A model generated the notes under the pieces. That model ran no database searches. It was given only the letters and a program-made list of their open reading frames with translations, and was not told the origin of the DNA. From Promethearchaeota archaeon (lineage in GTDB: Archaea > Asgardarchaeota > Hermodarchaeia > Hermodarchaeales > Hermodarchaeaceae), in NCBI GenBank assembly GCA_048939625.1, contig JBHLPH010000008.1:1-64000 (forward strand): DNA of 64,000 nt, written 5' to 3'. Below, piece after piece: positions 19,092 to 62,546 of the stretch. The position numbers and the translations under genes were made by a program. How positions within the stretch are numbered: position 1 is the stretch's first letter; each line of letters begins with the position of its first letter.

Positions 19092-19301
19092 CCGTGACAG
19101 CCTCTCTTTGAACTGCTGTCTCGGTCCCTCCTTCTTTATTTTAGGTTCTCACAGTCCGTTGCCAATTACGCAATTTCAACTGTGAGCCGAATCAAAGGCA
19201 CAAAACCTTTTTAATAATCGAAACCGATTTTTGTTTAAGGCAGAGACGGTGTGAAAGCAGGGGAAAGACTACTCTGTATAACGCTTCTCTGCGTAAGGTG
19301 A

Positions 19302-19631
19302 ATGCCTGTGATTGTACTCGAATACCAAGATGGAACATTTGTCGAATCAAAACAAGGTTCAAGCGGTATCCGTTGTGAAGTCGACAAAACCACGAAGAAA
19401 ATCCGAATGATTATGCCTCAGGGTTCTGGCCTCGTTGAAAGACGAACAGCATTACGACTGGCAGACACTGTTGCGCGGAGTGGATATCTACTTTCAACCG
19501 GTGAACGAATCGGCCAGGGGTTCGAACTCGTCATCGATGAAAAAGGCACTGCAATTCCTGATCGACTCAAACAAAGTCCACGAATCAGCTACAGCTCAGT
19601 TACTGTCGGCAGTGTTGTGGATAAGAAGTAA
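19302..19631 (+). CDS. Small protein, putative divergent single gelsolin-like domain
   Basis: Pattern EVDKTTKKIRMIMPQGSGLVERRTALRLADTV...FELVIDEKG parallels the gelsolin-repeat pattern (iLD...iyvW.G..s...E+..A...A...i..v.eG); AAGGTGA SD. Confidence 0.45.
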   Translation: MPVIVLEYQDGTFVESKQGSSGIRCEVDKTTKKIRMIMPQGSGLVERRTALRLADTVARSGYLLSTGERIGQGFELVIDEKGTAIPDRLKQSPRISYSSVTVGSVVDKK

Positions 19632-19715
19632 GCAGTACTCCGTACAATAGCACTCTGTCAATTTGACACAAAAGAACGAGCTCGGAAAACATCCCATGAT
19701 ATCGAGGTGAATGAT

Positions 19716-19892
19716 GTGAGCGAAGGAGAAAGTAAAGGAGGATCTCTGACAGAAGAACTTAAGCGCGAAATCAAGCAAGGCGCAAAACTCGAACATGTCA
19801 AAGAGGTAAAATACCAAACCGTTGATTTGTCTGCAGAGAAAGCACTCCTCGAAAAGTTAAGAGCTGAAGGGAAACTCGACGAAGAAGATTAG
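19716..19892 (+). CDS. WH2/actobindin-like microprotein (~58 aa)
   Basis: GAGGTGA SD at 19704-19710 then GTG at 19716; LTEELKREIKQGAKLEHV fits the WH2 helix-G-x-x-L-K-[KH]-V pattern; T-rich terminator follows. Confidence 0.65.
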   Translation: MSEGESKGGSLTEELKREIKQGAKLEHVKEVKYQTVDLSAEKALLEKLRAEGKLDEED

Positions 19893-19954
19893 TAACATCT
19901 TCTTTTGTGTTGTTGCTCCTTTCGTTTTTTTCTATGACCATTTGGTCCTATATA

Positions 19955-21634: not shown

Positions 21635-22504
21635 CTAAGCGGGTGGGAATGCCACTTCAGCCGCTGCACCCATCAACGTCTTAAATAGCAGTTCTTTATT
21701 ACGGGGATCAATAGCAACCAATCCAATGGTCCGTAATCCCAACAAGCGTGAAACTGTATCAGGTAATAAGGCATCTTTGAGGTCCTGCTTATTAGCAATT
21801 GCCCAGATTAAGGCTCCATCAGTCCATTTCTGAATGATGGGGATGAGTTTGCGTGTGGACATGACGTTCTTCAAGGTTGAGTCAGTCACCATCAGAACAA
21901 CGTCTGTTCCGCGTAGATAGTCTTTCCATTTGGGGACTAGCAGTTCTTGCCCAGGAAAATCCCAGACTGCTAATTCATAAGGACCAAGTTTTGCAGTTCG
22001 CATTTCTTCGACGTAAACAGCCATTGTTGCAATGTGATTCAGGTCGGCTCGTCGAGTCATTAGCATTTTGAGGATAGTTGTTTTGCCAACTCCACCTTCA
22101 CCAAGTAAAACGATTTTTAGCGTTGAAACGATTGCTTCGTCAAGAATTGGGCCTAGACCTTGAAAGACCTCAGAATTTCGATTGCTTTTGAAATCCCAGA
22201 TCTGTTTGGCAAATTTCTTTTTCATCGTCCGGACTGCGGTATCAATTTTTTCTTGCAGGATTTCATCTCTATCCTGTCGGTCAGCTACAACAACGAGGAT
22301 CAGGTCGCTGTCAACATATTTGTGAATGAATTTCATACCATCCAGAAAAATCGGAACGGGAAGGTCTTCACCCGTATCTCTTTCGAGTTGGCGAAGAGAT
22401 TGGATATACTCAGAGACGACTGGTTGGTCAATTTCAATCGCCCAATATGAGCGATGAAAGAGTTTGATTCCGTTTCTTGTGAGTAAGAGAACGTTATGGA
22501 TCAA
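21635..22504 (-). CDS. Longin domain fused to an Arf/Rab-like small GTPase
   Basis: N-terminal MIHNVLLLTRNGIKLFHRSY longin strand pattern; G1 GEGGVGKTT, G3 WDFPGQ, G4 NKQD. Confidence 0.85.
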   Translation of the reverse strand: MIHNVLLLTRNGIKLFHRSYWAIEIDQPVVSEYIQSLRQLERDTGEDLPVPIFLDGMKFIHKYVDSDLILVVVADRQDRDEILQEKIDTAVRTMKKKFAKQIWDFKSNRNSEVFQGLGPILDEAIVSTLKIVLLGEGGVGKTTILKMLMTRRADLNHIATMAVYVEEMRTAKLGPYELAVWDFPGQELLVPKWKDYLRGTDVVLMVTDSTLKNVMSTRKLIPIIQKWTDGALIWAIANKQDLKDALLPDTVSRLLGLRTIGLVAIDPRNKELLFKTLMGAAAEVAFPPA

Positions 22505-24151: not shown

Positions 24152-24796
24152 TTAATGCCCGGTTAATCGTTTAGCGATTTTCACAGCTTGATTGAAGTCT
24201 ACACCATATGCGTCGGCACCAATTTTATCCGCAAATTGCTGGCTAACTGGAGCACCCCCGACCATTACCTTGACCTTTTTGTCAAGCTTCTCAGCCTTGA
24301 GTAAATCGATGGTTTCTTGCATTCGGTCCATTGTAGTTGTGAGTAGTGCAGACATGGCGATGATGTCTGCTTTCACATTCTTGGTCTTGTCAATGAACTG
24401 CGCTGGCGTTACCTCTACCCCTAAATCATAGACGGTAAATCCAGCAACTGTTAGCATTGTTGCGACAATTGATTTACCAATGTCGTGGATATCTCCTTGA
24501 ACGGTACCTATCACAATTTTTCCTAGAGCTTCTTCATCCACGGTTTTGGCTAAATATGGTTCAAGGAACTTGAGGGCTTGTTTCATTGTTTCAGCAGCAA
24601 CAGCCAGTTCGGGTAGGAATGCTTCGCCTTTTTCGAAGCGATCTCCCAAGACTCGAATTCCTGCTGTTAGTCCTTGATTCACTATCTGCGAGGCATCAAT
24701 TCCCTCCTCAATGGCTTTCGGAACAAGTTCAAGAACTTGATCGGTTTGGCAATTGATCATTTCATTGCGTATTTGGTCTACAATTTTTTGTCCCAT
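24152..24796 (-). CDS. Methyltransferase cognate corrinoid protein (MttC/MtbC-like)
   Basis: GTVQGDIHDIGKSIV (DxHxxG), SALLTTT, MVGGAP. Confidence 0.95.
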   Translation of the reverse strand: MGQKIVDQIRNEMINCQTDQVLELVPKAIEEGIDASQIVNQGLTAGIRVLGDRFEKGEAFLPELAVAAETMKQALKFLEPYLAKTVDEEALGKIVIGTVQGDIHDIGKSIVATMLTVAGFTVYDLGVEVTPAQFIDKTKNVKADIIAMSALLTTTMDRMQETIDLLKAEKLDKKVKVMVGGAPVSQQFADKIGADAYGVDFNQAVKIAKRLTGH

Positions 24797-24830
24797 TGGT
24801 TAAGTCCCTCGTCAGTCCTTGCGACTTCAT

Positions 24831-25886
24831 TCATTCGATGATTTCCCAAGAGTGCTGATACTTATCGAGTTCTGATATGGTTCGGGAATCCATAGGGTGA
24901 TCTCGATCTGGAACATCCAAGTGTTTTGGTTCACCACAAAGGGGTGTACTGAAATAACGCTGTCCGCTGTCATTAATCATAGTCACGATGTTTTTGAGTT
25001 CTGGATGTTTCTTTACTAATTTCAGAGCAGCTGCCACATTACAGCCTGAAGAGATACCACAAAACAGTCCCTCTTCGCAGCTGAGCCATTGGGCCATTTC
25101 AAGAGCTTCATCAGATGTGGTTGTGATTATGCCATCCAGAATGCTTAGGTCTAGATTTTCAGGGACGAAACCGTCCCCAATGCCTTCGATACGGTGGGAC
25201 CCCCATCTCCTGTGGGCTAGGAGTGGAGCTTCAGTGGGTTCAATGGCGTAAAGTTTTACTTTGGGATTCTGTTCGCGTAAATATCGACCAACACCTGTGA
25301 TTGTTCCGCCTGTTCCTTGGCTGGCTATGAATGCATCAACGTTCTTTCCAGACTGCTCCCAGATTTCAGGTCCTGTTGTTTCATAGTGGGCAAGCGTGTT
25401 GTCAGGATTGCTAAATTGAGCCGGTTCCCAATACTTGCCAGGGTTGGATTCCTTGAGCTCTTTGACCTTCTCAAGACACAAATCGACATCCGATTCACCA
25501 CCCGGCGTCAGAATGATTTTCGCCCCATACGCTGACATTAATTTTCGTCGCTCTTGACTCATTCCTTTGGGCATAACTATGGTCACTGGATAATTTAGCA
25601 TTCGACCTACAAAGGCACACGCTATTCCTGCATTGCCCGTAGATGACTCAATGATTTCCATACCAGGCTTAAGGTCTCCTCGGTTAATGGCTTCTTGAAT
25701 CATTTTGAAGTAGATTCGGTCCTTAAGACTCCCTGTGGGGGAATACCATTCGATTTTTCCTAAGATATTCGCTCCTGCTCTTTCACTGACTTTTGGCATT
25801 CGGAAAAGAGGAGTAAGACCGATGAGGTCAAAGATATTATTCTGAATCTGTTTGTACTTATCCCATTTCAAAGGCAACGTCCGCAA
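24831..25886 (-). CDS. PLP-dependent cysteine synthase/cystathionine beta-synthase family protein
   Basis: PTGSLKDR (PLP Lys), ESSTGNAG, QFSNPDN, GTGGT, HRIEGIG. Confidence 0.9.
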   Translation of the reverse strand: MRTLPLKWDKYKQIQNNIFDLIGLTPLFRMPKVSERAGANILGKIEWYSPTGSLKDRIYFKMIQEAINRGDLKPGMEIIESSTGNAGIACAFVGRMLNYPVTIVMPKGMSQERRKLMSAYGAKIILTPGGESDVDLCLEKVKELKESNPGKYWEPAQFSNPDNTLAHYETTGPEIWEQSGKNVDAFIASQGTGGTITGVGRYLREQNPKVKLYAIEPTEAPLLAHRRWGSHRIEGIGDGFVPENLDLSILDGIITTTSDEALEMAQWLSCEEGLFCGISSGCNVAAALKLVKKHPELKNIVTMINDSGQRYFSTPLCGEPKHLDVPDRDHPMDSRTISELDKYQHSWEIIE

Positions 25887-26012
25887 CTCCTATGGAATTA
25901 ATCGCAGCTTAGACTAGCCCGTATATAAGGATACAGCTTCTCGTGATGCACGAAGCAAAAAATCATAAGAGGCTAAGGTGGCTTTCTGAAGAGATCAATA
26001 GGAGTCAATTCA

Positions 26013-26720
26013 GTGAAACTTCAAGGACCTTTCCTCTATGGGCAATTCCTCGAACGCCCAAATCGATTCCTGACAGTCTGCCGGTTGAACGGACGTAAAG
26101 TTTTGGCGTATATACCGAATCCTGGTCCTATGCCTGATTTGCTTTTTTCTGGCGTTGAAGTTCTTCTCCGACATAACCCAGGAGTTCATCGAAAAACCGA
26201 TTATGATCTAGTCTGTTCACGTAGTAATGGCGTGCTGCTATCTTTAGATTCACGCGTTCCCAATTGGCTGCTTGCAGAAGCTCTACCTCGTCGCCAACTA
26301 ACTCCCTTTGCTCAATACCATGAGATTGTTCCTGAACCCGTCTACAAGGATAGTCGACTCGATTTTCTTCTCCGGAATAAAAACCTCCCGCCGTGTTATA
26401 TCGAGGCTAAATCCTCTACTGATACTCGTGAGGGTGTTGGCATGTTTCCCCGGGTTCCTACCGAACGGGGACAACGGCATGTTCAAGAGCTAATGCATGC
26501 CATCGATGAAGGACACCGTGCAGCAATTGTTTTTATCGTTCAACGAATCGACGCTGATAGGATGCAGCCAAACGATCCAATTGATCCAGAGTTTGGAGCT
26601 GTCTTACGCAAAGCAGTCGATTATGGCGTTGAAGCTTACGCCTGGAGAACCCGCTTCATCGAATCCACTTGTGAAATCACAATCGACCGACAAATCCCCG
26701 TTGATCTGAGTCCCCCTTGA
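26013..26720 (+). CDS. sfsA: Sugar fermentation stimulation protein/DNA-RNA nuclease SfsA
   Basis: RPNRF, SRLDFLL, YIEAKS, PTERGQRH, DPEF. Confidence 0.92.
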   Translation: MKLQGPFLYGQFLERPNRFLTVCRLNGRKVLAYIPNPGPMPDLLFSGVEVLLRHNPGVHRKTDYDLVCSRSNGVLLSLDSRVPNWLLAEALPRRQLTPFAQYHEIVPEPVYKDSRLDFLLRNKNLPPCYIEAKSSTDTREGVGMFPRVPTERGQRHVQELMHAIDEGHRAAIVFIVQRIDADRMQPNDPIDPEFGAVLRKAVDYGVEAYAWRTRFIESTCEITIDRQIPVDLSPP

Positions 26721-61789: not shown

Positions 61790-61940
61790 GTCAGTGCATC
61801 TGAAACCAAGAATTCCTATTTTCGCCAGAGCGTCTGGATGAAATGAGGGAACATTAAAAACGCATATTCGATTCAGTCTAGATAATCCGTTGTGGACAGC
61901 TTGTGTCCATGGTGGGACTCCTTTCAAGGTGGAATGAAAA

Positions 61941-62546
61941 GTGGCTGATTATCAAAAATACCATATTCAACGGGGTCATGTCATGCGTGTCCCTGATGAT
62001 ATGGCTAACGATTTTGGTGATGGTGACTGTTATCTTATTGACACTGGTCCCGTCATTTACCTCTGGTGTGGCAGTAAAGCCACCGTGGACGAACGCTTCA
62101 TTGGTGCCGTCACTTCTGTATGGCGTGATCAAGAACGCAAAGGTGCAGCACGACTGGTAACTGTTGAAGCCCGAAGCGAACCTCCAGACTTTCTCGACCT
62201 CTTCGATGGTAAACTCAATATCACTGACCAAGACACCGAGGGCATCCTAAAAAAAGTCATTCTGGAAAAACATGAGTTCAAACTCTTCCGACTCAACATT
62301 GTCGGAGGCGTTCACCTATTCATTGAGGTTCCCCGCTCTAAAGAGAGTTTGAAATCCGATGATGTATACATACTCGACACCTTTGATCAAATCTACATTT
62401 GGCGAGGAAATTCCTCAACCGGTCGTGAAAAGTTCCACGCCATGTTAATTGCACGACGATACGACTATGAAAGAGCAGGTGCACAAGATATTGTGCTTGT
62501 GGAAGAGGGTGAAGAAACCAAAGAATTTCTACAGGCACTAGAATGA
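61941..62546 (+). CDS. Two-domain gelsolin (Asgard 2DGel type)
   Basis: Two repeats, GDCYLIDTG..IYLWCG and DDVYILDTFDQIYIWRG...VEEGEET; WH2-like linker GILKKV. Confidence 0.92.
   Translation: MADYQKYHIQRGHVMRVPDDMANDFGDGDCYLIDTGPVIYLWCGSKATVDERFIGAVTSVWRDQERKGAARLVTVEARSEPPDFLDLFDGKLNITDQDTEGILKKVILEKHEFKLFRLNIVGGVHLFIEVPRSKESLKSDDVYILDTFDQIYIWRGNSSTGREKFHAMLIARRYDYERAGAQDIVLVEEGEETKEFLQALE

Follow-up and report, generated by a model that had tools for sequence, protein, structure and literature searches.

A free-standing WH2/thymosin-like microprotein, conserved beside a ProGel-like gene in Asgard archaea, is a probable binder of monomeric actin

Upon analyzing a 64,000-nucleotide stretch of Asgard archaeal DNA (the window), we determined that it encodes, at positions 19716–19892 (+), a 58-aa microprotein that probably works like a beta-thymosin/WH2 peptide, binding monomeric Asgard actin. 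A preliminary description, made from the DNA alone, had proposed a free thymosin/actobindin-like peptide; that it is free-standing and WH2/thymosin-like is upheld by (i) a profile search of the PDB, (ii) relatives containing LKK[AV], (iii) orthologs having thymosin-type spacing, (iv) a ProGel-like neighbour, and (v) the actin co-immunoprecipitation (co-IP) of an array form, while the actobindin part of the proposal had to be given up. The papers found describe profilins and gelsolins as the actin regulators of Asgard archaea and a WH2-like motif only as four residues in the two-domain gelsolin (2DGel), and the papers searched contain no description of a free Asgard thymosin/WH2 peptide or of its accessions. 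If binding holds, the microprotein would add a third eukaryote-type class to the actin regulators of Asgard archaea, bearing both on the question of a common ancestor for WH2 and beta-thymosin and on monomer-pool control in the cultured, crawling Lokiarchaea. New in the present analysis are the identification of the stand-alone ortholog with its non-significant co-IP result, the finding of thymosin spacing in cultured Lokis and of a Thor protein that embeds the unit, and the dismissal of co-evolution with the host actin.

The microprotein gene is a real, strongly conserved coding gene under purifying selection. As first described, an open reading frame of about 58 codons starts with GTG behind a strong Shine–Dalgarno sequence (SD), and we confirmed both: the SD GAGGTGA (19704–19710 (+)), with a GGTGA core conserved at every orthologous locus shown, lies 5 nt before the GTG at 19716, and the frame closes with TAG (19890–19892). 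The peptide segments quoted at that time are present in frame, except that a Glu between LSA and KALL had been omitted. Gene callers often choose the GTG inside the SD (19707), giving 61 aa; unlike this start, the one at 19716 has an SD spacing that is kept among orthologs. The 18 further host-family genomes yielded one match each (E 1e-25 to 5e-7, 50–89% identity), and throughout the family the stand-alone form has 58 aa, its own SD and its own stop. One of the 18 has an additional, frameshifted copy; this second ProGel-peptide locus (L020/L021, contig C408 of genome G013), whose peptide frame is shifted by 2 nt, is probably a strain variant or an assembly error. Substitutions among the orthologs are concentrated at third codon positions (93/84/275 at positions 1/2/3), and dN/dS is 0.118 overall. 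The motif L-x3-I-x2-G-x2-L-x-H-[VA] occurs a single time in the six-frame translation of the genome (2.6 million residues), and a search of 1.84 billion representatives returned four close relatives of the microprotein and no more. Since public sets already list it as a hypothetical protein, the expectation that annotation would easily miss it was not borne out. Among longer proteins, one isolated 109-aa fusion was found, which is weak evidence: in this one record (P0106), on an 857-bp contig, the peptide reads on into a DUF2179 domain, probably as a chimera or a rare fusion.

The WH2-like unit (residues 11–28; 19746–19799 (+)) comprises a helix with L11, L15 and I19, then Gly22, and the tetrapeptide LEHV (25–28), the equivalent of LKKT/V. 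It is followed by an extended linker of variable sequence but constant length (residues 29–36; 19800–19823 (+)), the least conserved inner segment; by a near-invariant C-terminal amphipathic helix (residues 37–54; 19824–19877 (+)), a candidate pointed-end cap; and by a short acidic tail devoid of Trp (19878–19889 (+)). E14, L15 and L25 are invariant in orthologs, I19 and G22 nearly so, and the stretch 37–54 forms the second conserved block. The WH2-like helix has a hydrophobic moment of 0.69 and carries the three hydrophobic residues that are part of the WH2 definition (PMC3298513), but the Leu-Leu pair of WH2 itself is missing. The most constrained part is the C-helix, with a dN/dS of 0.033 as compared with 0.107 in the WH2-like part, a threefold difference. 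An AF2 model of the peptide contains helices at 13–20 and 39–50 and, between them, an extended chain with no helix in the linker; it has a pTM of 0.30 and no compact fold, in line with a disordered peptide that would bind through two helices. Two other identities were considered: a SHOCT-like reading of helix 2 found no match in a Pfam search, and Pup/UBact, which are marked by a C-terminal GG[EQ], were ruled out by the lack of this ending.

Helix 2 carries the Leu-Leu-x-x-Leu-Arg pattern of WH2 helices, and it might be read as a second, degenerate WH2 helix that engages a further actin subunit (actobindin- or Spire-like), or as a tether between actin and ProGel or another protein, in an actin-binding peptide that would work at filaments or as a bridge and would deliver, cap or nucleate instead of buffering. 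Besides the pattern, the natural stringing of the unit in ten-unit arrays and an abundance of about one-tenth that of actin in L. ossiferum (both described below) would agree with such a role. We nonetheless regard it as improbable: the residues after helix 2 are acidic and include no LKKT-like motif, and in the model helix 39–50 begins 14 residues past Leu25, a distance that suits a single monomer as in thymosin beta-4, where the Leu and the C-helix are 13 residues apart.

The genomic context points towards actin. Directly upstream of the peptide, wherever the contig reaches and in both genera, lies a gene of about 107 aa; here it occupies 19308–19631 (+), is co-directional, ends 84 nt before the peptide, and has a conserved GTG start and an SD at 19297–19301. 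Sequence-level searches with this gene gave no match. Its AF2 model (mean pLDDT 72.9), however, ranked 7C2F, a Thorarchaeota ProGel bound to actin, first in two fold searches (Foldseek, E 4.2e-4; VIA, Z 10.2 and rmsd 2.9 over 74 residues), with gelsolins and cofilins ranking next. On the strength of this model, the gene is assigned a ProGel fold, i.e., a single gelsolin/cofilin domain. In actin, ProGel binds the cleft that is also proposed here for the microprotein, and it bundles filaments (PMC7444086).

A BRE/TATA-like element (19200–19217 (+)) that is conserved across orthologs lies upstream of the ProGel-peptide pair and, judging by the archaeal consensus, would act as its promoter. A pyrimidine/T-rich tract (19899–19931 (+)), T-rich in the orthologs as well, comes after the peptide stop, faces the convergent flavodoxin gene, and is likely a terminator. 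Because the pair is framed by these two elements, the two genes are likely co-transcribed. The 5' leader contains a hairpin of about 55 nt (19240–19292 (+)) that ends just before the ProGel SD and is conserved in both genera (folding z -4.18; 93% of cells paired, with mostly G-U variation). Its covariation did not exceed that of shuffles, Rfam gave no match, and the genome shows no enrichment of its loop pattern; the hairpin is a possible cis-regulator of the pair. Genus-wide, the gene order is a 640-aa membrane protein, the ~107-aa gene, the peptide, and then convergent flavodoxin and acylphosphatase genes, while in the second genus flavodoxin is not always next to the peptide. Further along the window (21635–22504 (-)), a Longin-like N-terminal domain is fused to an Arf/Roc-like small GTPase.

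As the proposed relationship concerns WH2 and thymosin, the HMMs suggested in the preliminary description were applied, and neither PF02205 (WH2) nor PF01290 (thymosin) matched the microprotein; nor did PF02205 match anything in the host genome (Pfam cut-off 23.1 bits). In the family as a whole, 5 of 23 units gave Pfam WH2 matches, the best with E 0.012. We also searched 177,635 PDB sequences with a profile built from Asgard sequences only (A4). Four of its top five matches were WH2-actin chains (3M3N, N-WASP, E 2.6e-6; 2VCP, N-WASP, 0.02; 2D1K, MIM, 0.09; 3M1F, VopL, 0.63), although, apart from a three-repeat construct, the individual WH2 matches are non-significant. Omitting the Thor rows from A4 left the same four chains among 13 matches (E 0.18–0.79). 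The alignment to N-WASP and MIM is gap-free, and all matches span only a core of 10–13 residues, from the Ile at the helix end to the Leu motif, so that the likeness may be convergent. The single microprotein and the Hermod-only full-length profile retrieved nothing relevant from Pfam or the PDB, matches to ATP synthase alpha and TIM barrels were rejected as chance, and with two of the profiles designed TIM-barrel repeats scored above WH2.

Thymosin beta-4 ranked first for the long-spacer Loki orthologs, but non-significantly, with an E of 0.96 for the profile and 0.38 for one sequence, itself selected on resemblance. Thymosin was also the best named family by ESM features (0.88 for the microprotein and 0.87 for the L. 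ossiferum ortholog, with 184 shared features), scores that lie under the 0.9 line and serve as leads only.

A short, Gly-containing linker separates the helix from the Leu, and within the Hermod group 29 of 31 units have the Ile-x5-Leu spacing. The Leu at the LKKT position is invariant, while the tetrapeptide that it begins varies (LEHV, LEHA, LQSA, LKKA and others); a dibasic motif is found in 4 of the 31 units, as compared with 10 of 11 Thor units, and LKKA occurs in some close relatives of the microprotein. Conservation and synteny had been named as a check on the original proposal: orthologs are present in 18 of 18 family genomes and the ProGel-like neighbour is kept, but the L.HV motif, replaced by LEHA, LQSA or LKKA, is not. 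The proposed actobindin relationship is not supported, there being a single LEHV here versus two LKHAET hexapeptides in actobindin (PMC2132640), and orthologs retain the TVD.SA match only in part, with DLSAE alone being fixed. Because the score falls short, the dibasic motif is not kept and tandem hexapeptides are lacking, we do not place the microprotein in PF02205, PF01290 or actobindin.

Beyond the host group, a Hermod-only profile gave weak matches in short Loki ORFs and in one Thor protein, and the corresponding HMM scored these Loki and Thor relatives above composition-matched shuffles (0–11 of 2000); the Hermod-Loki profile link itself is weak (hhalign prob 30, E 5.5e-4), and the genes flanking the peptide differ between the two classes. 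In two Loki families, a profile of the N-terminal unit matched 116 of 135 genomes and 4 of 4, respectively, nearly always in ORFs of 50–60 aa; it also matched about 27 Thor genomes, in which the unit is embedded in a helical protein of about 310 aa and reads LKKA or LKKV. This near-canonical WH2 unit makes the Thor protein a candidate actin-binding scaffold. The Thor helical-repeat protein (L064:1135–2034 (-), L123–L139) is hypothetical in databases and has a weak Vps35 match (E 0.005).

The full-length profile detected the peptide in all 14 genomes of the family that includes the cultured Lokis. Loki forms with a short and with a long spacer share the same context, between acetyltransferase and pelota, and are therefore taken to be one gene. 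In L. ossiferum and MK-D1, the orthologs, of 55 residues, have thymosin-type Ile-x7-Leu spacing and a DKSK-like linker, share the tail of helix 2 with the Hermod peptide, and end in Trp-Glu-Glu (L160, L155, L159); the cultured Lokis additionally encode an array of about ten units (~488 aa). The named family genes are DSAG12_00453 in MK-D1 and GNAMCCOK_02436 and GNAMCCOK_04085 in L. ossiferum. Eighty genomes of other Asgard families yielded no convincing copy with the query used (profile A6): three weak matches, in proteins of more than 1,100 aa, are confined to the charged helix, and one further weak match (E 0.014) lies in a 338-aa ORF. Weak A3/A4 matches in G114, G161 (contig C24) and G162 (at 3.31 Mb) were discarded as partial matches in unrelated enzymes.

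The Glu in LEHV had been suggested either to weaken binding or to reflect co-evolution with the host actin. The actin of this lineage keeps its cleft segments, the acidic pair 24/25 and Glu334 (the LKKT site), and the 2DGel of the same genome keeps LKKV; the K-to-E change is therefore not compensated by actin, and co-evolution is rejected. It is more likely that the change weakens the predicted actin site. The 2DGel with its canonical LKKV linker is itself encoded in the window (61938–62543 (+)), and a second one lies on contig C15.

Published actin co-IP data for L. ossiferum (10.1101/2025.11.30.690169) bear on the family. Its monoisotopic mass (56.41) and its place eight genes beyond gene 04077 (12.98 kDa) identify the 488-aa array as GNAMCCOK_04085 (56.41 kDa), which was enriched as strongly as actin itself (log2 4.53, adjusted p 0.002, 44 peptides; actin, log2 4.44) (10.1101/2025.11.30.690169). 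The IP was broad and used formaldehyde crosslinking, about 58 proteins reaching a log2 of at least 1.7 (10.1101/2025.11.30.690169), and the array may therefore be an indirect partner of actin. By the same register, the stand-alone ortholog is GNAMCCOK_02436 (8.24 kDa as annotated, with an upstream ATG as its start); GNAMCCOK_03900 (6.54 kDa) was ruled out by mass and gene order, and GNAMCCOK_02450 as a 13.39-kDa glycine-cleavage H-like protein. GNAMCCOK_02436 was detected in three of three actin IPs and one of three controls, and its enrichment is non-significant (log2 0.57, p 0.042, adjusted p 0.105) (10.1101/2025.11.30.690169). The two profilins reached log2 values of 1.07 and 0.31 in the same IP (10.1101/2025.11.30.690169), from which it follows that known monomer binders are weak in it.

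The proteome of L. ossiferum places the stand-alone ortholog (log2 18.4) between the profilins (19.5 and 17.4) and below actin (21.7) (10.1101/2025.11.30.690169), i.e., at profilin-like abundance and about one-tenth of actin, with the proviso that small proteins are poorly quantified and that another column reads 22.0 for the ortholog and 23.0 for actin. Such an abundance is easier to reconcile with fine control than with a bulk actin store. Neither the array nor the stand-alone ortholog is discussed in the searched passages of the main text, in both versions of the paper. Other strongly enriched proteins outside its identifier table are GNAMCCOK_04250 (20.6 kDa, log2 5.1, 92% coverage), 02875 (9.5 kDa, very abundant, 4.0), 03085 (4.4 kDa, 2.7) and 03900 (6.5 kDa, 2.5).

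The non-significant result for the stand-alone ortholog could also mean that the peptide does not bind actin at all, being instead a small charged adaptor or inhibitor whose partner sits at the invariant C-helix, with a WH2 likeness that reflects only a common helix-Gly-cap pattern. The threefold stronger constraint on the C-helix, the loss of the LKKT lysines, the chance PDB matches of the full-length Hermod profile, and the TIM-barrel repeats that outscore WH2 are all in keeping with this explanation. It would, however, leave unaccounted for the ProGel neighbour in both genera, the emergence of canonical LKK[AV] and of thymosin-type spacing within the same family, and the co-purification of the array with actin, and we consider it unlikely.

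We thus favor a disordered two-helix peptide that would bind monomeric Asgard actin in the beta-thymosin/WH2 mode. By analogy with eukaryotic WH2-actin structures (PMC3298513, PMC3464195), helix 11–21 would dock in the subdomain 1/3 cleft, Leu25 would anchor in the cleft pocket, and the linker chain would run up along the monomer; helix 39–50 may then reach the subdomain 2/4 (pointed-end) face, as the C-helix does in thymosin beta-4. Asgard actins have a Lys and an Arg near residues 350 and 354 that the invariant Glu14 might contact. A 1:1 complex of this kind would leave less free monomer and reduce spontaneous nucleation. Without the two lysines the N-terminal site should be weaker, which would be in keeping with the C-helix being the more constrained part, and the peptide may act together with the neighbouring, probably co-transcribed ProGel, a user of the same cleft. 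Given actin binding, we lean slightly towards sequestration through both ends of the monomer, and consider a profilin-like shuttle with a loosely held C-helix almost as likely.

Comparison with known systems underlines both likeness and difference. The microprotein resembles WH2 (PF02205; 2VCP/3M3N, 2D1K, 3M1F) in its amphipathic helix, its Gly linker with Ile-x5-Leu and its Leu-x-x-[VAT], but falls below the Pfam cut-off, and has Glu-Leu-Lys in place of the WH2 Leu-Leu, with the lysines mostly lost; moreover, WH2 is a module of large proteins, whereas here it is a free microprotein. Like thymosin beta-4 (PF01290; 4PL8), it is a stand-alone, acidic, presumably disordered protein in the 5–7 kDa range with the order helix, Leu motif, linker and C-helix, but it has the shorter x5 spacing of WH2, no LKKTET and no Pfam match, and in L. 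ossiferum the ortholog does not outnumber actin. With Acanthamoeba actobindin it would share the nature of a small free actin binder, as well as the His in the Leu motif, which is single and degenerate here and present in actobindin as two hexapeptides.

Asgard 2DGels have the same origin and the same predicted actin site, and their WH2-like tetrapeptides read LRRV, LKHV and LVDV (PMC9433394), but these consist of four residues that link two gelsolin domains and lack a WH2 helix of their own, whereas in the microprotein helix and motif form a separate gene. An acidic variant of the motif in Loki 2DGel still binds actin, through Ca2+ (PMC9433394), although its acidic residue is at another motif position than in the microprotein. 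An archaeal precedent for sequestration, which the microprotein would share by analogy, is Arcadin-2 of Pyrobaculum, a helix of which blocks the hydrophobic groove of the actin homologue (PMC5173319); it differs in its ~200 aa, in having no detectable similarity to actin sequesterers, and in a peptide direction opposite to that of thymosin (PMC5173319).

A single archaeal family thus includes units with WH2 spacing (Hermod and most Loki) or thymosin spacing (cultured Lokis), a tandem arrangement and, in Thor, a canonical copy inside a larger protein; these are the main architectures used by eukaryotes. We tentatively suggest that the beta-thymosin/WH2 fold may be homologous in Asgard archaea and eukaryotes, and that a free regulator of actin monomers might have existed before eukaryogenesis. 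As most other Asgard families sampled yielded no copy, direct ancestry of the eukaryotic motif does not follow.

The divergent actin paralogues suggest one further role, that of a minimal W-C-A peptide handing actin to them as WASP-family tails do with Arp2/3. The order WH2, helix and acidic tail is indeed the WCA order (PMC3464195), the orthologs of L. ossiferum and MK-D1 have Trp-Glu-Glu as their last residues, WASP-family tails usually have a near-terminal Trp (PMC3298513), and the host genome and its kin have tandem divergent actin genes. The absence of Trp from every Hermod copy, the acidic tail of only 4–5 residues, and the lack of both Trp and acidic tail in most Loki copies make this role very improbable in our judgement. 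A search for ARPC4 in five genomes gave no match, but the control likewise matched nowhere.

The host assembly contains only the two divergent actins as complete genes, the true actin gene, which is complete in kin genomes, being cut at the end of contig C19. Similar breaks of the true actin at contig ends recur in many family assemblies (C19 end in G000; L026, L028–L032), and the gene may be multi-copy or hard to assemble. The tandem divergent actin genes, of about 340 aa each (L022/L023; contig C45 of G000, 24297–26424), are followed by small coiled-coil-like ORFs family-wide, and in three genomes the pair is apparently fused in a single frame of 717–743 aa. Next to actin, on its downstream side, L024 and L025 contain an opposite-strand ORF of about 380 aa with a Zn-ribbon-like start, a segment of which resembles, by eye, a LAGLIDADG endonuclease.
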